Virus record (IMG/VR): IMGVR_UViG_2534681701_000013
Coordinates: 1 to 49,536 of that record
Source: a virus
Taxonomy: Duplodnaviria; Heunggongvirae; Uroviricota; Caudoviricetes
Strand: one strand, 5' to 3'
Length of the DNA stretch: 49,536 nt
The translations under genes were made by a program, and so were the position numbers. Position 1 is the stretch's first letter, and each line of letters opens with the position of its first letter. The notes under the pieces are model-generated. The model worked only from the letters and a program-made list of their open reading frames with translations, was not told the origin of the DNA and made no database searches. Below are positions 2,490-47,518 of this stretch, one piece after another.

Positions 2490-2650
2490 ACCGCCTCCCG
2501 TTTATTATTTATCTTCTCAGCCAGCCGCTGTGCTTTCAGTGGATTTCTGATAACAGAAAGGCCGGGAAATACCCAGCCTCGCTTTGTAACGGAGTAGACG
2601 AAAGTGATCGCGCCTACCCGGATATTATCGTGAGGATGCGTCATCGCCAT
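2462..2650 (-). CDS. Hypothetical early-left protein (lambda orf60a position)
   Basis: 62-aa ORF whose start region overlaps the exo stop (2641-2643), as orf60a does in lambda. Confidence 0.45.
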
Positions 2651-3321
2651 TGCTCCCCAAATACAAAACCAATTTCAGCCAGTGCCTCGTCCATTTTTTC
2701 GATGAACTCCGGCACCATCTCGTTAAAACTCGCCATGTACTTTTCATCCCGCTCAACCACGACATAATGCAGTCCTTCACGCTTCATACGCGGGTCATAG
2801 TTGGCAAAGTACCAGGCATCTTTTCGTGTCACCCACATGCTGTACTGCACCTGGGCCATGTAAGCCGATTTTATGGCCTCGAAACCACCGAGCCGGAACT
2901 TCATGAAATCCCGGGAGGTAAACGGGCATTTCAGTTCAAGGCCGTTGCCGTCACTGCATAAACCATCGGGAGAGCAGGCGGTGCGCATACTTTCGTCGCG
3001 ATAGATGATCGGGGATTCAGTAACATTCACGCCGGAAGTGAACTCAAAGAGGGCTCTGGCGTCGTTCTCGTACTGTTTTCCCCAGGCCAGCGCCTTAGCG
3101 TTAACTTCCGGAGCCACACCGGTGCAAACCTCGGCAAGCAGGGTGTGGAAGTAGGACATTTTCATGTCAGGCCATTTCTTTCCGGAGCGGGGTTTTGCTA
3201 TCACATTGTGAACCTCTGAAGCGGTGATGACGCCGAGCCGTAATTTGTGCCACGCATTATCCCCCTGTTCGACAGCTCTCACGTCGATCCCGGTACGCTG
3301 CAGTATAATGTCCGGTGTCAT
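2641..3321 (-). CDS. exo: Lambda-type 5'-3' exonuclease (Red-alpha, YqaJ family)
   Basis: 226-aa translation matches lambda Exo almost throughout ([21 protein letters not shown]...). Confidence 0.95.
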
Positions 3322-4103
3322 GCTGCCACCTTCTGCTCAGTGGCTTTCTGTTTCAGGAATCCAAGAGCTTTCACTGCTTCGGCCTGTGTCAGTTCTGACG
3401 ATGCGCGAATGTCGCGGCGAAATATCTGGGAACAGAGCGGCAATAAGTCGTCATCCCATGTTTTATCCAAGGCGATCAGCAGAGTGTTAATCTCCTGCAT
3501 GGTTTCATCGTTAACCGGAGTGATGTCGCGTTCCGGCTGACGTTCTGTAGTGTATGCGGTATTTTCGACAATGCGCTCGGCTTCATCCTTGTCATAGATA
3601 CCAGCAAATCCGAAGGCGAGACGGGCACACTGAATCATGGCTTTATGCCGTAACATCCGTTTGGGATGCGACTGCCACGGGCCGGTGATTTCTCTGCCTT
3701 CGCGGGTTTTGAATGGTTCGCGTCGGCATTCATCCATCCACTCGGTAACGCAGATCGGATGATTACGGTCCTTGCGGTAAATCCGGCATGTACAGGATTC
3801 ATTGTCCTGCTCAAAGTCCATGCCATCAAACTGCTGGTTTTCATTGATGATGCGGGACCATCCATCAACGCCCACCACCGGAACGATGCCGTTCTGCTTA
3901 TCAGGGAAGGCGTAAATTTCTTTCGTCCACGGATTAAGGCCGTACTGGTTGGCGACGATCAACAATGCGATGAACTGCGCATCGCTGGCATCGCCTTTAA
4001 ATGCTGTCTGGCGAAGAGTGGTGATCAGTTCCTGTGGGTCGACAGAATCCATGCCGACACGTTCAGCCAGCTTCCCTGCCAGCGTTGCGAGTGCTGTACT
4101 CAT
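3318..4103 (-). CDS. bet: Single-strand annealing protein Bet (Red-beta, RecT family)
   Basis: 261-aa translation matches lambda Bet; 4-bp overlap with exo as in lambda. Confidence 0.95.
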
Positions 4104-4108
4104 CCGTT

Positions 4109-4405
4109 TTATACCTCTGAATCAATATCAACCTGATGGTGAGCAATGGTTTCAACCATGTACCGGATGTGTTCTGCCATGCGCTCCTGAAAGTCAACAT
4201 CGTCATCAAACGCACGGGTAATGGCTTTTTTGCTGGCCCCGTGGCGTTGCAAATGATCGATACATAGCGATTCAAACAGGTGCTGGTGCAGGCCTTTTTC
4301 CATGTCGTCTGCCAGTTCTGCCTCTTTCTCTTCACGGGCGATCTGCTGGTAGTGACGCGCCCAGCTCTGAGCCTCAAGACGATCCTGAATGTAATAAGCG
4401 TTCAT
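4109..4405 (-). CDS. gam: RecBCD inhibitor Gam (short form)
   Basis: 98-aa translation [21 protein letters not shown]... matches lambda GamS; AGGAG RBS upstream. Confidence 0.95.
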
Positions 4406-4479: not shown

Positions 4480-4770
4480 TTAGTGATTCAGACCGTTGCC
4501 GCGCCCGTCGAGAAAAACTTCCACGAGCAAGTCGCGGGTATAAGTGCGCTCGATGCCGCGATGCAGATAAAGCCGTCCGCGTAAATTAGCTGATGCAGTC
4601 CAGGTACCATCTTTGTGTTTGACCAGCATTCCTGGCATGACCGCACCGCGATTAACGGTCTGCGTTCCGTAATGTTGATGAACCATAAAAACTCCTGCCC
4701 GTAAGCTGGGCTGCTGAACATATAGAGACTTCTGCGCGTATTCAGGCGGTGGATGGCCGCCGGTTGTCAT
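4480..4770 (-). CDS. Hypothetical protein (first ORF of the leftward operon; not N, Kil or CIII by sequence)
   Basis: 96-aa ORF with ATG and GAGG-like RBS; G/H/R-rich, no arginine-rich motif, no family recognised; could be non-coding. Confidence 0.35.
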
Positions 4771-4949
4771 AACTAAGCCGCCTCGTTGAAGCGACTGAGG
4801 TATGAGGTGTTGAGTTGAGTTGATTTCAGCTGGTCACACCGACGTTCACGCGTCCGTTTCACCCCTCGCACTCCCCGGAGCCTGCCGAAATTCAAGCTGC
4901 GGATCTAAGCGGTCATCGCAACGGTGAATCAGGTGGTTGCCGTATCGTT

Positions 4950-5030
4950 GTGTTGTTGCGACATGGTAATAATAGCTATTGCTATTGGCGGTATCAATAC
5001 TTATAGCTATTGATTGATGTGTTTTGATAT
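4950..5030. promoter_or_regulatory. Candidate leftward operator/promoter region (OL/pL analogue)
   Basis: Repeated CTATTG/TAGCTATTG elements and TATTG...CAATA inverted repeats; the same CTATTG/CAATA half-site motifs recur in the cI-cro intergenic region. Confidence 0.3.
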
Positions 5031-5129
5031 TAACTGTTTGATAGCAAAAAGAATTAATTTTGTGACTTGCATCGCATAGCGATAACTGAAGGGAGGTTGT
5101 GGTGGTTTTTTGAACGGTGTGTGATGAGG

Positions 5130-5162
5130 GGAGGCAAAAGAAAACCCGGCACGACGGCCGGG
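5130..5162 (-). terminator. Rho-independent terminator downstream of the 287-aa gene
   Basis: Stem CCCGGC (5145-5150) / GCCGGG (5157-5162) with 6-nt loop, followed on the minus strand by TTTTCTTTTG; sits immediately after the stop at 5167-5169. Confidence 0.6.
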
Positions 5163-5166
5163 GAAA

Positions 5167-6030
5167 TCATTTCGCATCTACAATAAATAACCTGTTTATC
5201 TGGCCTTTTTTAACAGTAGCCTTTGCGGTTATAGTGAATACTGCAGATGGATCACCTTTGGTTGATATATATGCACTAAGAGCTCTAATATACGGGTTAT
5301 TCTTCTTTCCTGCAGCTGGATCGCTAATTTCAGCAGTGATTCTCTTTTTTGAGTCATCACCATCTAAAATTATTTTAGCTGTCATATTTTGTGCATCAAA
5401 TTCTGTAAGAAAAGCACGATACTCACGAAGACCGAGAACTTCATCATCATCAAGCCTATCAATTTCAGCTTTATCTCTCTCGTTAACTTTTAGAAGGCAG
5501 CCGTCAACATTTGTTGCAACACTTATCTGATCGCAAGTATTACCAATAGGTGATACTGCCTGCCTTACAGAGGGGCGAAGCTCTACAGCCATTCGGTCAA
5601 TCAAAGAGATCAACTTATCAATGGTTCCAGCATCCTTGTTTCCTAGTGCCTCTATGGCCTTTTCAAGTGACTGCTGCAAAGCTTTCATTTCATCTTTCTT
5701 GTTAGAATTTCTCGCAAAAATATATTGTAGTATTGCGCCAAGTATAGTTGCGGCGATCCCCGAGAACAACTGGTTCTGAGTGGCGAAGTTAAGAACTGCT
5801 TCAAGAGTAAAGCAGTTAGCTTTTGCTTCGCGTGCGTAAACCTTAACTTCCTGATAATTAATGTATTTACTATATTTTTGTGTAACAGAGAAAGAAGCTG
5901 CTGTTGAGAGAACTTTAGAAAAACCCTTTAGGGATTCTCCTAGGCAGTTCAAATCTATTTCATGATTTAAAGCATCTTTTCCGTCATACCTAAGAGAGAT
6001 TTTTATATCCTGTAAAGCGTCACAATCCAT
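5167..6030 (-). CDS. Hypothetical 287-aa protein in the rexAB slot (candidate superinfection-exclusion / abortive-infection gene)
   Basis: ORF with ATG start, co-oriented with and 66 bp downstream of the repressor gene; visibly AT-rich compared with its neighbours; one hydrophobic segment ([18 protein letters not shown]); no motif of any family I recognise; own terminator. Confidence 0.75.
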
Positions 6031-6096
6031 AAATCGCTCTCGTCTAATTCTAATTAAATTTACTATCCCCTAAACGACTCATCAGCACAGTACTGA

Positions 6097-6789
6097 TTAT
6101 CCATGTTTCCTGTACGTTTGGGGCATGCTCCCAATAACCTTACCGAAGATGAACACCCGGTTCATCTCGTCTTTCTCGATCGGGTCCCACGGTGAGTAGC
6201 TCTTGTTATCAGAGATAACCAGCAGCTTATCCTTCATCATTTGCAGGCGCTTTACATGGGCGGTGTCGTCGTACAGAAACGCATAGATGCCATCACCGTC
6301 GAAAGATTTAACCGTGATATCAACGAACAGCAGATCACCTGGTTCGATCGTTCCTGACATGCTGTCACCACGCACGTTAATGATGCGGATATTTTCTGCC
6401 TTCCTACCATCGAACATGTGACGAGCATCGTCAAACGAGTACTCAACCGAGCGTAGAACTTCTACAAACTCACGGTTGATGACTCCCGGCCCGGCACTCA
6501 CTTCTATATCAAGAACGTCAATCTTGAAGTATTTGGGATGGTTGGCAGTAGGCTTCCCTAATTGTTGACCGTCATTTCTCATCGGGCCTATGCCTGATGA
6601 GAGCCACTCTGTTCGAACACCCAATGCATTAGCTATTTCAACAATTTTTGTTGAGCCGCGCGCGTTGCCGCTTGTCAGTCTCCAGATTGTGGGTTGAGCT
6701 ACGCCAGACGCCTTTGCAAGAGCGCCTTGAGACATTCCAGATTGTTCCATCGCTAGGTTTAAGCGATCAGCAAGAGTTTCTTTTTTCAT
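6097..6789 (-). CDS. Phage repressor (CI analogue): N-terminal HTH, C-terminal LexA-like S24 autopeptidase
   Basis: HTH segment MSQGALAKASGVAQPTIWRL; C-terminal GDSM serine motif (VRGDSMSGTIEPGDLLFVD) and downstream lysine as in LexA/CI; track ORF extends to 6825 but ATG at 6787-6789 (MKKETLADRL...) is the likely start. Confidence 0.88.
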   Translation of the reverse strand: MKKETLADRLNLAMEQSGMSQGALAKASGVAQPTIWRLTSGNARGSTKIVEIANALGVRTEWLSSGIGPMRNDGQQLGKPTANHPKYFKIDVLDIEVSAGPGVINREFVEVLRSVEYSFDDARHMFDGRKAENIRIINVRGDSMSGTIEPGDLLFVDITVKSFDGDGIYAFLYDDTAHVKRLQMMKDKLLVISDNKSYSPWDPIEKDEMNRVFIFGKVIGSMPQTYRKHG

Positions 6790-6899
6790 AAGTTTTAATT
6801 TATACGCTTGCGTATTGATGGTCAAAACACGTTTTGCTATTGTTATGATTAATACGCATTGCTATTATTTATTCGTTGCAATACCAATAGGAATTGATA
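6790..6899. promoter_or_regulatory. Divergent repressor/cro control region (OR, pRM/pR analogue)
   Basis: 110-bp AT-rich gap between divergent repressor and cro-like genes; inverted repeat TACGCTTGCGTA and repeated TTGCTATTG/CAATA motifs. Confidence 0.5.
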
Positions 6900-7127
6900 A
6901 TGACAAATCAAACCATTCAACTCGCAATCAGTATTACAGGTAGTCAAAAACGACTGGCAGATCTATGCGGTGTAGCCCAACCCACTGTTTGGCGTTGGCT
7001 ACACGGTGGCGGAATTGATGCCCGCTATGTAATGAAAATTGTCTCAGCCACTGGTGGAAAGATTAAACCAGCAGATATTCGTCCCGACCTCGCACCATTG
7101 TTTAACGCGAGTAATTCTGCCGCCTAA
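6900..7127 (+). CDS. Cro-like HTH regulator
   Basis: Small ORF divergent from the repressor; HTH-like QKRLADLCGVAQPTVWRW; ATG at 6900 with AGGA RBS (track start 6894 is a TTG two codons upstream). Confidence 0.8.
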   Translation: MTNQTIQLAISITGSQKRLADLCGVAQPTVWRWLHGGGIDARYVMKIVSATGGKIKPADIRPDLAPLFNASNSAA

Positions 7128-9411: not shown

Positions 9412-9710
9412 CGGGCAAAGAGGCAATTATTCATTACCTGGGGACGCATAAGAGCTTCTGTGCACAGGACGTTGCCGCGGTAACAGGTGCAACCGTAACC
9501 AGCATAAATCAGGCTGCGGCTAAAATGGCGCGGGCAGGAATCCTGGTCGTTGATGGTAAGGTCTGGCGAACGGTGTATTACCGGTTCGCTACCAGAGAAG
9601 AACGGGAAGGAAAGGTGAGCACGAATCTGATTTTTAAGGAGTGTCGCCAGAGTGCCGCGATGAAACGGGTACTGAGGGTATATAAAAGAACATCAATGGG
9701 AACACAATGA
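9408..9710 (+). CDS. ren: Ren (Rex exclusion relief protein)
   Basis: Translation MTGKEAIIHYLGTHKSFCAQDVAAVTGATVTSINQAAAKMARAG... matches lambda Ren. Confidence 0.9.
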   Translation: MTGKEAIIHYLGTHKSFCAQDVAAVTGATVTSINQAAAKMARAGILVVDGKVWRTVYYRFATREEREGKVSTNLIFKECRQSAAMKRVLRVYKRTSMGTQ

Positions 9711-9727
9711 TGAAACAGGTGAGTTGA

Positions 9728-9762
9728 GTTCAAACTGTAGTACAATTCTCTCCAGTTTGAAC
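9728..9762. other. Perfect 10-bp inverted repeat immediately upstream of the emrE RBS
   Basis: GTTCAAACTG (9728-9737), 15-nt loop, CAGTTTGAAC (9753-9762); no T-run follows. Confidence 0.5.
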
Positions 9763-9777
9763 AGGAAAGAATATGCT

Positions 9778-10110
9778 ATGAACCCTTATATTTATCTTGG
9801 TGGTGCAATACTTGCAGAGGTCATTGGTACAACCTTAATGAAGTTTTCAGAAGGTTTTACACGGTTATGGCCATCTGTTGGTACAATTATTTGTTATTGT
9901 GCATCATTCTGGTTATTAGCTCAGACGCTGGCTTATATTCCTACAGGGATTGCTTATGGTATCTGGTCAGGAGTCGGTATTGTCCTGATTAGCTTACTGT
10001 CATGGGGATTTTTCGGCCAACGGCTGGACCTGCCAGCCATTATAGGCATGATGTTGCTTTGTGCCGGTGTGTTGGTTATTAATTTATTGTCACGAAGCAC
10101 ACCACATTAA
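9778..10110 (+). CDS. emrE: SMR-family multidrug efflux transporter EmrE
   Basis: 110-aa translation MNPYIYLGGAILAEVIGTTLMKFSEGF... matches E. coli EmrE; ATG at 9778 with AGGA RBS (track ORF starts at 9724). Confidence 0.9.
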   Translation: MNPYIYLGGAILAEVIGTTLMKFSEGFTRLWPSVGTIICYCASFWLLAQTLAYIPTGIAYGIWSGVGIVLISLLSWGFFGQRLDLPAIIGMMLLCAGVLVINLLSRSTPH

Positions 10111-10364
10111 AATAATTTGTTTCTAAACGACTAAAATATGGAGGTTCTTATATTTATATGAGCCTCGTTTTATGCTTTTTGTTAATGTCTTTATTTTTTA
10201 TGTATTCTTTTGTACTTTCAAGATTATGGCGTAAGAAAATTGCAATACGATTATTGTTGTATATTCAAGATAATGTGACCTTAATTGTCTTTTTAAATAA
10301 AAATTAAACAAAAATTATATCCCACCACTAAGGTTTATAAAAGCATACGTTAGCAGGTGTCACC

Positions 10365-11891
10365 ATGAAAAAAGCCATAGCATATATGCGATTTTCATCA
10401 CCAGGTCAGATGTCTGGCGACTCATTAAACCGACAGAGAAGACTTATTGCTGAATGGTTAAAGGTAAATAGTGATTATTATCTTGATACCATAACATATG
10501 AAGATTTAGGATTAAGTGCATTCAAAGGAAAGCATGCACAATCAGGAGCTTTTTCGGAATTTTTAGATGCTATAGAGCATGGTTATATATTGCCAGGAAC
10601 TACATTGTTAGTTGAAAGTCTGGACAGACTTTCAAGAGAAAAAGTCGGTGAAGCGATTGAACGTCTGAAATTGATTTTGAATCACGGTATTGATGTTATA
10701 ACTCTTTGCGACAATACAGTCTATAATATTGACTCTTTGAATGAGCCATATTCATTAATAAAAGCCATACTTATAGCACAAAGGGCAAATGAAGAAAGCG
10801 AGATAAAGTCAAGTCGGGTTAAATTATCATGGAAGAAAAAACGGCAGGATGCACTGGAATCAGGTACGATTATGACGGCGTCTTGTCCGAGATGGCTCTC
10901 CTTAGATGACAAAAGAACGGCTTTTGTTCCAGACCCCGACAGGGTGAAAACTATTGAGCTAATTTTTAAACTCAGGATGGAAAGGCGCTCATTGAATGCA
11001 ATAGCCAAGTATTTAAATGATCATGCTGTAAAGAATTTCTCAGGAAAAGAAAGTGTATGGGGACCTTCTGTAATTGAAAAATTATTAGCGAATAAAGCTC
11101 TGATAGGTATATGCGTACCTTCATATCGTGCAAGAGGGAAAGGGATAAGTGAAATCGCTGGCTATTATCCCAGAGTCATATCAGATGATTTGTTTTACGC
11201 TGTACAGGAAATTCGGTTGGCACCTTTTGGTATTAGCAATAGTAGCAAGAATCCTATGCTAATAAATCTACTTCGAACAGTTATGAAGTGTGAGGCTTGT
11301 GGTAATACCATGATTGTTCATGCGGTATCTGGAAGTTTGCATGGCTATTATGTTTGTCCGATGAGAAGATTACATCGATGTGACAGGCCATCAATAAAAA
11401 GAGATTTGGTTGATTATAATATCATTAATGAATTGCTTTTTAATTGTAGCAAAATTCAACCAGTTGAAAACAAGAAAGATGCTAATGAAACTTTAGAGTT
11501 AAAAATTATTGAGCTTCAGATGAAAATTAATAATTTAATCGTTGCATTGTCTGTCGCGCCTGAAGTTACCGCTATAGCAGAGAAAATAAGACTATTAGAT
11601 AAGGAATTACGAAGGGCTTCGGTATCATTGAAAACTTTGAAGAGTAAAGGTGTAAATTCATTCAGTGATTTTTATGCTATTGACTTAACCAGTAAAAATG
11701 GACGAGAGTTATGCCGTACACTTGCCTATAAAACATTCGAAAAAATCATAATTAATACGGATAATAAAACCTGTGATATCTATTTTATGAATGGCATTGT
11801 TTTTAAACACTATCCTTTAATGAAAGTAATATCCGCCCAGCAGGCGATAAGTGCTCTCAAATATATGGTTGATGGTGAGATTTATTTCTAA
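10365..11891 (+). CDS. ybcK: Large serine recombinase (DLP12 YbcK-like)
   Basis: 508 aa; N-terminal resolvase-type motif AYMRFSSPGQ, central recombinase region, cysteine cluster CEACGNT...YYVCPMRRLHRCD (zinc ribbon); AT-rich. Confidence 0.9.
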   Translation: MKKAIAYMRFSSPGQMSGDSLNRQRRLIAEWLKVNSDYYLDTITYEDLGLSAFKGKHAQSGAFSEFLDAIEHGYILPGTTLLVESLDRLSREKVGEAIERLKLILNHGIDVITLCDNTVYNIDSLNEPYSLIKAILIAQRANEESEIKSSRVKLSWKKKRQDALESGTIMTASCPRWLSLDDKRTAFVPDPDRVKTIELIFKLRMERRSLNAIAKYLNDHAVKNFSGKESVWGPSVIEKLLANKALIGICVPSYRARGKGISEIAGYYPRVISDDLFYAVQEIRLAPFGISNSSKNPMLINLLRTVMKCEACGNTMIVHAVSGSLHGYYVCPMRRLHRCDRPSIKRDLVDYNIINELLFNCSKIQPVENKKDANETLELKIIELQMKINNLIVALSVAPEVTAIAEKIRLLDKELRRASVSLKTLKSKGVNSFSDFYAIDLTSKNGRELCRTLAYKTFEKIIINTDNKTCDIYFMNGIVFKHYPLMKVISAQQAISALKYMVDGEIYF

Positions 11892-12355
11892 ATAATGATC
11901 TCGGATTTTAAGTTATGCTATGGTGATAAAGTGCAAGACAGAATTAATTATCTTTGACGAAACTTAATGGGTAATTACTTTGTTTGCTCCCACAAGCGAG
12001 TTTTGTACGGCTGTATTGGGGTAGTAAATGAGCTATACAATCTTAATCATTTGTTAGGTGAGAACTCTTGGTCGCAGATTCAAATACTGAAAATACGTGA
12101 CAAATTATTATGAGCAAAATGGTGTATGTCACGTATTTTGAATGGTAGGTTAAAAAATAACACCGACTTTCGTAGGTATTACTAATAATAAAGCAGAGTT
12201 TTTAGATAGTATCAATGTGCTTTGTGTATATTGTGGCAAATAATTGGGTTGGGGGTACAATTGTGATTGCTTTTGCATGAACATTGCGCCTTTATGCATA
12301 ATGAGATAAAGGAATATCAAATAAAATAACGATAGGTCATAACAAAGAGGTTTTT

Positions 12356-46934: not shown

Positions 46935-47518
46935 TGGCATTCAGAATGAGTGAACAACCACGGGCCATAAAAATTTATAATCTGCTGGCCGGAACTAATG
47001 AATTTATTGGTGAAGGTGATGCATATATTCCGCCTCATACAGGTCTGCCAGCAAACAGTACCGATATTGCACCGCCAGATATTCCGGCTGGCTTCGTGGC
47101 TGTTTTCAACAGTGATGAGTCATCGTGGCATCTCGTTGAAGATCATCGGGGTAAAACGGTTTATGACGTGGCTTCCGGCGACGCGTTATTTATTTCTGAA
47201 CTCGGTCCGTTACCGGAAAATGTTACCTGGTTATCGCCGGAAGGGGAGTTTCAGAAGTGGAACGGCACAGCCTGGGTGAAGGATACGGAAGCAGAAAAAC
47301 TGTTCCGGATCCGGGAGGCGGAAGAAACAAAAAACAACCTGATGCAGGTAGCCAGTGAGCATATTGCGCCGCTTCAGGATGCTGCAGATCTGGAAATTGC
47401 AACGGAGGAAGAAATCTCGTTGCTGGAAGCATGGAAAAAGTATCGGGTATTGCTGAACCGTGTTGATACATCAACTGCACCTGATATTGAGTGGCCTACG
47501 AACCCTGTCAGGGAGTAA
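46934..47518 (+). CDS. tfa: Tail fibre assembly chaperone Tfa
   Basis: 194-aa translation [24 protein letters not shown]... matches lambda Tfa. Confidence 0.95.

Follow-up and report, generated by a model that had tools for sequence, protein, structure and literature searches.

The site directly downstream of the gene for the cI repressor is known as a hotspot for mosaic diversity; its transcription in lysogens is high, and it holds the abortive-infection systems RexAB and BstA (PMC8585504). BstA, from the Salmonella prophage BTP1, is a lysogen-expressed abortive-infection protein that acts at phage replication sites, and a DNA element named aba is involved in self-immunity (PMC8585504). Its gene stands alone directly behind the repressor, in a synteny kept in many prophages, and is followed by a terminator (PMC8585504). 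In lambda, the site is occupied by rexAB, which has the orientation of cI, is co-transcribed with it in the lysogen and is followed by a terminator and OL/pL, and Rex acts on T4 rII mutants. Here we analyzed a gene of 287 amino acids (aa) at the corresponding place in a Caudoviricetes sequence (IMG/VR record IMGVR_UViG_2534681701_000013, positions 1 to 49,536); this whole stretch of 49,536 nucleotides is called the window. An earlier reading of its letters, referred to below as the original prediction, had proposed an undescribed prophage defence gene with its own terminator. Judged from sequence and genomic context, the gene would be an anti-phage gene expressed in the lysogen, to which we assign a probability of roughly 0.55. 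The broader statement, that its function is anti-phage in some way, is probable and the safer of the two.

The predicted open reading frame (ORF; 5167..6030, minus strand, 287 aa) was confirmed, and so was its place in the rexAB slot, between the repressor and OL/pL. The gene is co-oriented with the repressor, whose ORF ends at 6097, and its ATG at 6030 follows 66 bp downstream. A scan of the coding strand of this spacer (6031..6096) found neither a terminator-like nor a promoter-like site; it contains a weak Shine-Dalgarno sequence, GAGAG, 6 nt 5' of the ATG (duplex -3.0 kcal/mol). Because of the co-orientation with cI, the gap of only 66 bp and the lack of an intervening terminator, we infer that the gene is co-transcribed with cI and expressed in the lysogen. 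Divergent promoter-like sites were found at the OR repeats, a pRM-like site at 6825..6797 (minus) and a pR-like site at 6840..6868 (plus). As the pRM-like promoter ends 7 nt 5' of the cI ATG at 6789, a leaderless cI mRNA is suggested, as in lambda, where the pRM transcript of cI is leaderless. The clean intrinsic terminator that had been predicted does exist: a stem of 6 bp, all of them GC (5162..5145, minus strand), is followed by TTTTCTTTTG, and the fold has an energy of -17.7 kcal/mol (z = -3.3), which none of 200 shuffles equalled. It is not the gene's own, because it is backbone sequence common to prophages that carry other cargo, and the transcriptional isolation ascribed to the gene was not supported. 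The gene is AT-rich as claimed, with a GC content of 0.384 and a third-position GC content (GC3) of 0.295. In the flanks the two values are about 0.52 and 0.58, and they span 0.47-0.54 and 0.51-0.62 across the genes exo, bet, gam, kil, cI, O and P.

The likeness to the lambda slot is one of position only. A profile of 19 sequences aligned with hhalign gave a probability of 0.2% against lambda RexA (E = 0.35), 0.2% against RexB and 0.07% against SieB. The original prediction was thus correct that the protein resembles none of the three, each scoring below 1%. BstA is likewise unrelated to it: PDC-S42 was the one PADLOC model that matched at E up to 10.

The description as an undescribed gene did not hold. 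The protein matched PHROG 5147 over residues 1-287 of 287 (1.5e-178) and two Pfam families, PF25678 (DUF7946; residues 11-191, 3.8e-55, 187.2 bits, all 183 profile positions covered) and, C-terminal to it, PF25679 (DUF7947; residues 201-287, 1.4e-18, 67.1 bits), the gathering score being 27 bits for each. Against phage genomes, tblastn aligned 99% of the query with protein 40A of phi80 at 62.1% identity (E = 2e-114). The 40A protein (PHI80_46, AFV29182) has the same two-domain architecture, and its gene has the same place between cI and OL/pL, on the cI strand, although it sits in another phage backbone and immunity and its gap measures 136 bp instead of 66 bp. According to the phi80 annotation, 40A is the sole gene of the cI operon; the X13065 record of the phi80 early region, in which the gene was already annotated, divides it into '40A' and '40B'. 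A GenBank note on 40A, 'acetate kinase superfamily domain', was not reproduced by Pfam or NCBIfam scans, and a search of one literature library for DUF7946, DUF7947, PDC-S42 and gene 40A found no paper. The status of the gene as a cassette within the repressor operon, and its homology to 40A, are regarded as practically certain.

A profile search recovered 499 family clusters at 50% identity (E up to 1e-3), 346 of them at E up to 1e-10, and nearly all are 270-300 aa long and contain both domains. In a set of 98 diverse members DUF7946 was always present and DUF7947 was present in 97; none of the members bridged to a named functional family. An internal start at Met115, which by analogy with SieB/Esc would give a short '40B'-like product, was considered, Met115 being invariant in close homologues only. 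This idea is unsupported because no Shine-Dalgarno-like signal was found in 12 homologues and the methionine occurs in only 48 of the 98 diverse members.

Lysogens of phi80 (Lula) 'do not plate T4', the development of which is fully blocked; they also lower the titre of P1 10-fold, and phages with lambda, imm21 and imm434 specificity plate on them normally (Rotman, Amado and Kuzminov, PMC2885432). No gene was assigned to the T4 block or to the P1 effect in that study (PMC2885432), and our literature search found no later paper assigning a gene to the T4 block. From its position as the only gene behind the phi80 repressor, we infer that 40A may be linked to this resistance. Further accessory genes of phi80 that may be expressed in the lysogen are cor (FhuA-dependent exclusion), dinL, pinL, morF, PHI80_63 and PHI80_65.

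The occurrence of the gene and of its slot was determined in 5,426 complete E. coli genomes, in which five of the cargo types were counted. The 287-aa gene was present in 77 genomes and the adjoining window segment 5100-5164 in 558, regardless of cargo. Eight cargo types, the 287-aa gene included, were found with near-identical repressors on one side and a common kil-gam-bet-exo backbone on the other (Table 1), and the DUF7946/7947 gene was paired with two immunity types in E. coli. In junction alignments the homology among the eight types ends at the repressor stop codon and, in seven of them, restarts with the terminator stem CCCGGCC..GCCGGGTTTTCTTTTG; the exception is the C4 cassette, in which just the T-tract and the hairpin's 3' half are retained. 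These sharp junctions, the GC3 of 0.295, the missing terminator between cI and the gene, and a synteny kept at 69 of 77 loci (see below) strongly support the predicted moron, a horizontally acquired cargo in the repressor operon.

In PADLOC scans of six alternative cargo types, three matched defence or candidate models. The kinase of the P470 type matched the PD-T4-6, mad6 and Stk2 models (1e-27 to 1e-39), and two further cargoes matched the candidates PDC-M63A/B (1e-42) and PDC-M66A/B (1e-15). The PDC-M66A/B cargo, a HipA-family kinase with a DUF3037 protein, is the commonest of all, and 282 of its 284 carriers have it with an identity of at least 99%. Four cargo types of the slot gave no PADLOC or Pfam match. 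The kinase and phosphatase pair and the other cargoes have the same cassette position as the 287-aa gene in sister prophages, between the same repressor stop and the same terminator. The PD-T4-6/Stk2-type cassette differs from it in that its proteins, a Ser/Thr kinase and a PP2C phosphatase, are unrelated and act enzymatically. The slot-mates of the gene, and its neighbors at other loci described below, are of defence type; like the place of RexAB and BstA behind cI and the T4 block by phi80 lysogens, they lend indirect support to an anti-phage function.

Some further features of the slot were observed. The cargo of 340 aa and 168 aa has no Pfam or PADLOC match in either protein, and its second gene is labelled 'transmembrane protein' in phage Perceval; in size and layout the pair recalls rexA and rexB, which makes it a two-gene candidate by analogy. 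About 25 nt after the repressor stop (TCAGTACTGTGCTGATGAG...) are common to the window (6073-6096) and the C4-type cassette (L010 3074-3097) before the two diverge, whereas the other cargo types part exactly at the stop codon. This overlap may be a trace of recombination history. E. coli C4 also has a DGQHR-domain pseudogene with an internal stop after exo/DUF1317 (L010 6657-7721), a further variable position in the backbone.

The place behind a repressor is kept far beyond E. coli. Among 79 sampled IMG/VR loci (39-100% identity), 77 had enough flank to be scored with a hidden Markov model built from 11 repressors. At 69 of these 77, a cI/S24-like gene on the same strand ended at most 1,500 nt upstream, mostly less than 250 nt. 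After dereplication the repressors of the 69 loci fell into 21 clusters when grouped at 70% identity and into 8 when grouped at 40%, with 24 combinations of repressor and cargo, and the repressors beside the family include non-S24 types. The family is thus associated with a position, i.e., with expression alongside a repressor, and not with one particular repressor. Homologues checked by hand directly behind a same-strand repressor were found in Klebsiella (90% identity), in two Morganella prophages whose replication modules differ (53%), in two Proteus prophages (54-55%), in Vitreoscilla and Neisseria of the Betaproteobacteria (49%) and in a metagenomic prophage (36%). In Vitreoscilla sp. C1 the next gene of the leftward block encodes a 537-aa SIR2_2 protein (L016 6661-8274; PADLOC PDC-S25 2e-142, ThsA 1e-16), which suggests stacked defence cargo behind the repressor. 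At the Neisseria locus the next gene is a HigBA pair. Among the exceptions to the repressor position, a Serratia AlpA island carries the gene next to AbiD (4.8e-55), and a further copy lies in a Helicobacter prophage.

Near-universal expression with the repressor across such contexts could also be expected if the gene served the prophage's own life cycle by assisting the lysis-lysogeny switch or induction, or modulated host physiology during lysogeny. Lambda RexA has recently been proposed as an accessory of this switch, and an OB-like domain such as that of the 287-aa protein could bind DNA or a protein partner. The induction behavior of phi80 is also unusual (PMC2885432). Since the gene is combined with 21 repressor types, non-S24 ones included, a specific interaction with switch proteins is unlikely. 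Moreover, within one backbone the gene is freely swapped for unrelated cargo, kinases and defence candidates among them, and the copy next to AbiD lies outside any prophage immunity region. We consider a role in the prophage's own cycle improbable.

The gene could instead be a lysogenic-conversion factor unrelated to phages, for instance in envelope stress, virulence or colonisation, or a neutral passenger. Lambdoid morons include the non-defence genes bor and lom. The gene bstA was first tied to virulence phenotypes (PMC8585504). The 287-aa gene occurs in just 77 of the 5,426 E. coli genomes, and in one genome it is interrupted by IS1 and therefore dispensable there. Against such a role stand the strong association with the slot, which recurs in Gamma- and Betaproteobacteria of many habitats, the co-occurrence with AbiD, SIR2 and toxin-antitoxin genes, and the defence-type alternatives for the cassette; the 499 clusters, the fixed architecture and the conserved surface residues argue against neutrality. 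Either form of this explanation would be quite surprising. In the disrupted copy, that of E. coli strain VG1046-3E9 (L011 2714-3411), IS1A interrupts the DUF7946 gene in its 5' part, and a C-terminal ORF of 173 aa remains; P0053, a 'partial' protein of 167 aa that is represented by 59 member sequences, may be the product of this IS1A truncation.

The protein has no recognizable catalytic machinery, which agrees with a non-enzymatic anti-phage role. Neither a kinase, nuclease, protease or Walker A motif, as had been noted originally, nor a P-loop family was found by Pfam, which returned the two DUFs only, and Pfam, PADLOC, NCBIfam, PDB sequence and structure searches found no enzymatic family or fold. 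Residues G17, S33, G36, P161, D237, P238 and Y247 are near-invariant in the 98 diverse members, which have no invariant His, Cys, Glu or Lys (H23 85%; C73 Cys/Ser; C166 Cys/Ala). The conserved motif of DUF7946 is Y15-x-G17..A20..H23..L30..S33..G36; in DUF7947 the conserved residues are Y204, K219, R230, D237-P238, N245, Y247, K270 and R280. An AlphaFold model had a mean predicted local distance difference test (pLDDT) score of 74.8 and was good from residue 100 onward, with helices at 27-50, 92-108, 112-128 and 134-150, then a beta hairpin and a C-terminal barrel. The C-terminal 90 residues form a confident beta-barrel in this model, in place of the partly coiled-coil C-terminal half that had been predicted. 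The barrel bears a conserved patch formed by Y204, K219, R230, Y247, K270 and R280. Foldseek matched only OB folds in the PDB, all of them weakly; a search of BFVD structures gave uncharacterised viral proteins only, and a PDB sequence search gave no relative at E < 0.01.

The hydrophobic, possibly membrane-spanning segment of the original prediction is present at residues 88-106 and its position is conserved, but it is borderline as a span. Its KD19 value is 1.85, and in 19 close homologues the values range from 1.5 to 2.5 with the position kept in all 19. For the 98 diverse members the median value is 1.58, and only 49% of them reach 1.6. The helix was modelled at pLDDT 73-88. It is followed by R/K-N-x-x-K-K, and K plus R average 1.2 upstream and 2.9 downstream of it across the 98 members.

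A conserved hydrophobic helix with a flank of positive-inside type would also suit a superinfection-exclusion protein of the inner membrane that blocks the entry of phage DNA, so that the infected cell survives and the incoming genome stays out. P22 SieA, SieB of lambda and P22, HK97 gp15 and lactococcal Sie2009 are prophage-encoded, lysogen-expressed proteins with a hydrophobic segment, often encoded in the lysogeny module. The same positional logic and co-expression with the repressor apply to the 287-aa gene, and the complete failure of T4 to plate on phi80 lysogens fits an early block. These membrane-anchored proteins are not homologous to the 287-aa protein, which is larger, has a big soluble helical and OB portion, is only putatively anchored in the membrane, and gave no PADLOC or Pfam match to any known Sie protein. 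Across the family the helix is marginally hydrophobic, and an N-out topology would demand the export of a strongly charged N-terminus of 87 residues (10 K/R, 11 D/E) without a signal peptide. About 180 residues would remain in the cytoplasm, including the conserved, ligand-type OB barrel, which is more typical of a sensor. Entry exclusion is therefore seen as unlikely, though less so than a role in the prophage's own cycle.

Several observations weigh against an anti-phage function expressed with the repressor. A search of PADLOC-DB v2 at E up to 10 returned PDC-S42 as the sole match and no validated system, and this link is weak and limited to the N-terminal part (residues 9-127 against profile positions 4-113 of 302, E = 1.5e-4, 19.3 bits; a partial match that does not extend over the full length). 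Similar N-terminal matches were obtained with NCBIfam NF053583 LAPAL_fam (residues 11-121, 4.7e-6, 26.2 bits against a 60-bit cut-off, N-terminal 116 positions only) and phrog_3243 (residues 9-188, 2.4e-7). Among the 98 diverse members 23 matched PDC-S42 (best 3.2e-8) and 68 matched LAPAL_fam (best 1e-10). PDC-S42, LAPAL_fam and PHROG 3243 are sister families of about 290-300 aa that have the N-terminal DUF7946 part, including the hydrophobic helix, in common with the 287-aa protein and differ in their C-terminal domains, which do not align. The weak relation to the defence candidate PDC-S42 also counts in favor of an anti-phage role. For NF053583 the NCBIfam label reads 'putative phage structural protein'. 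In addition, residues 1-12 and 56-84 were poorly modelled, the OB-like domain is acidic in most members (median net charge -2), PHI80_63, PHI80_65, dinL and pinL are other candidates for the T4 resistance of phi80, and about 10% of the loci lie elsewhere, in head modules after the portal gene or in the late region near virion-protein-like genes. General nucleic-acid binding by the OB-like domain was also considered and is unlikely because of its acidity.

The copies among virion genes would be accounted for if the protein, when made by a lysogen, interfered with the virion assembly of competing phages, being derived from or mimicking an accessory protein of head morphogenesis. Tab, Tai and satellite interference proteins poison phage assembly in such a manner. 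Two copies (L102 and L103) lie inside the head module directly after the portal gene and two (L105 and L106) beside virion-protein-like genes, and the name of the sister family and the lack of enzymatic features agree with this explanation. The L102 copy (IMG/VR contig 3300007357_000057, 1177-3514) is part of a low-GC insertion of three genes between the portal and the protease/major-head genes, an unusual site for accessory genes, consisting of the DUF7946 homologue, a 137-aa ORF and an anti-repressor-like gene; a protease and a major head protein of its own are encoded by the same phage. Phages that carry the neighboring gene of L105/L106 have no DUF7946 homologue. Because of this low-GC insertion and the lack of the gene in these relatives, the L102 and L105/L106 copies are accessory, and a core structural or scaffolding role, which the copies behind portal genes had suggested, was rejected. 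No similarity to scaffold, portal or tail proteins was found by sequence or fold. Assembly interference is accordingly given about as little credence as a non-phage factor or passenger.

For a lysogen-expressed anti-phage gene, the preferred reading, the following mechanism can be envisaged. Transcribed with the repressor from pRM, the gene would yield its protein while the prophage is silent, and the lysogen would be protected from other phages, most plausibly T4-like ones, to the benefit of host and prophage alike. The protein would be non-enzymatic. Its C-terminal OB-like barrel may recognise a phage-derived ligand through the conserved basic and aromatic patch, and its N-terminal DUF7946 domain may act at the inner membrane, the hydrophobic helix being packed among amphipathic helices until it is released. 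Release of the helix would then cause a loss of membrane integrity or potential and abort the infection. Such a logic of non-enzymatic sensor and membrane effector would resemble lambda RexAB, and one polypeptide would be the functional analogue of RexA, the sensor, and RexB, the membrane effector. RexAB differs in comprising two proteins, of which RexB is multi-pass; the cassette described here has one gene and encodes a single polypeptide with one borderline hydrophobic helix. Abortive infection at the membrane specifically is a possibility that we put forward tentatively. Equally doubtful is the wider proposal that the DUF7946/DUF7947 proteins are anti-phage systems of a new and widespread family, each consisting of one non-enzymatic protein, in which an OB-like sensor controls a latent membrane-inserting helix and which would lie behind the T4 block of phi80.

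Table 1. Features of the repressor operon and its surroundings in the window, and cargo types of the slot in other genomes (L numbers denote loci; fractions are E. coli genomes).
Feature	Position or source	Strand	Basis, occurrence or remark
Swappable cargo cassette, completely different among prophages with the same flanks	5163..6096		Junction alignments of eight cargo types
Backbone segment, terminator and downstream	5100..5164		558/5,426, and Bievrevirus phages Perceval and 4A7
ORF of 287 aa, ATG start, DUF7946 + DUF7947, phi80 40A homologue	5167..6030	minus	ORF list, Pfam, PHROG, tblastn
DUF7946 domain, residues 11-191: motif, hydrophobic helix, amphipathic helical bundle	5458..6000	minus	
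Hydrophobic helix, residues 88-106, borderline transmembrane or latent membrane-inserting, then basic stretch	5713..5769	minus	
DUF7947 domain, residues 201-287, OB-like five-stranded beta-barrel	5170..5430	minus	
Spacer of 66 bp, repressor stop to cargo ATG	6031..6096	minus	
cI-type repressor, HTH_3 + Peptidase_S24	6097..6825	minus	ORF, Pfam; start of RefSeq homologue at ATG 6789 (230 aa)
Intrinsic terminator (tIMM-like), end of repressor operon, fixed right boundary of slot	5135..5162	minus	Motif scan, folding
OL-type operator repeats over pL-like promoter	4964..5012	minus	Repeats D4, D5 and I4, related to OR repeats
OR operator repeats (6826-6871) with divergent promoter-like sites	6797..6871		
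cro-like gene (YdaS/P22_Cro HTH), divergent from repressor	6894..7127	plus	Pfam
exo	2641-3321	minus	
bet	3318-4103	minus	
gam	4109-4405	minus	
kil	4480-4770	minus	
Cargo: HipA-family kinase + DUF3037 protein	E. coli YD786 (L003 3392-4965)		284/5,426
Cargo: DUF6932 protein + 310-aa protein	JA0266		98/5,426
Cargo: DUF7946/7947 gene	Window		77/5,426
Cargo: 340-aa + 168-aa pair	E. coli E9 (L002 3443-4993), the same in phage Perceval (L027 1944-3494)		43/5,426
Cargo: Ser/Thr kinase + PP2C phosphatase	P470		15/5,426
Cargo: 337-aa protein	S21EC		
Cargo: 89-aa + 146-aa pair	C4		
Cargo: 353-aa + 125-aa pair	phage 4A7		

The window prophage is a lambdoid of the Bievrevirus type at the DLP12 site. On the plus strand, the YdaS/Cro-type gene is followed by a gene in the YdaT/CII position and then by O- and P-like replication genes. 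On the minus strand, the pL-like promoter (4997..4969) has a -35 element TTGATA (4997-4992) and a -10 element TATTAT (4974-4969), with 10 of 12 consensus matches. From this promoter to kil (4770-4964) no N-type antiterminator gene was found, only a 40-aa ORF with a TTG start; N is present at the corresponding place in both phi80 and lambda, and leftward antitermination in the window backbone is not obvious. In strain MB06173 the same prophage adjoins intD, tRNA-Arg and fimZ, a marker of the DLP12 type. The DLP12 of K-12 presumably has no intact immunity region, unlike the DLP12-type prophage of the window. A gene for an SMR-family (EmrE-like) transporter (9724-10110, 4e-34) and one for a 508-aa large serine recombinase (Resolvase + Recombinase + Zn_ribbon, 10365-11891) fall in a low-GC region at about 9600-12000. 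An Rfam scan gave nothing relevant to regulatory RNA at the locus of the 287-aa gene; near the right end of the window it gave a full-length match to the IS009 RNA family (47277-47475, plus strand, 223.6 bits).

The gene itself is already catalogued, and the slot downstream of cI is a known hotspot. What raises the value of the finding is the combination of a large, uniform family, an architecture unlike those of known defence systems and a classical phage that bears the gene in the diagnostic position and has an unexplained anti-T4 phenotype. About 10% of complete E. coli genomes have the slot, whose sharp limits are the repressor stop codon and the shared terminator and which is a simple mine for new defence candidates; five cargo types cover 517 of the 558 slot-bearing genomes. 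The DUF7946/DUF7947 family is compact, uniform and tied to the prophage promoter with the highest expression. Among clinically relevant Enterobacterales it is found in Klebsiella, Enterobacter, Serratia, Proteus and Morganella, and it could affect host range in phage therapy. Should the 287-aa gene serve defence, 40A of phi80, so far an orphan in a classic phage, would gain a function, the published resistance to T4 of phi80 lysogens, often met as contaminants in laboratories, would be accounted for, and the protein would represent an architecture that is absent from known defence systems.

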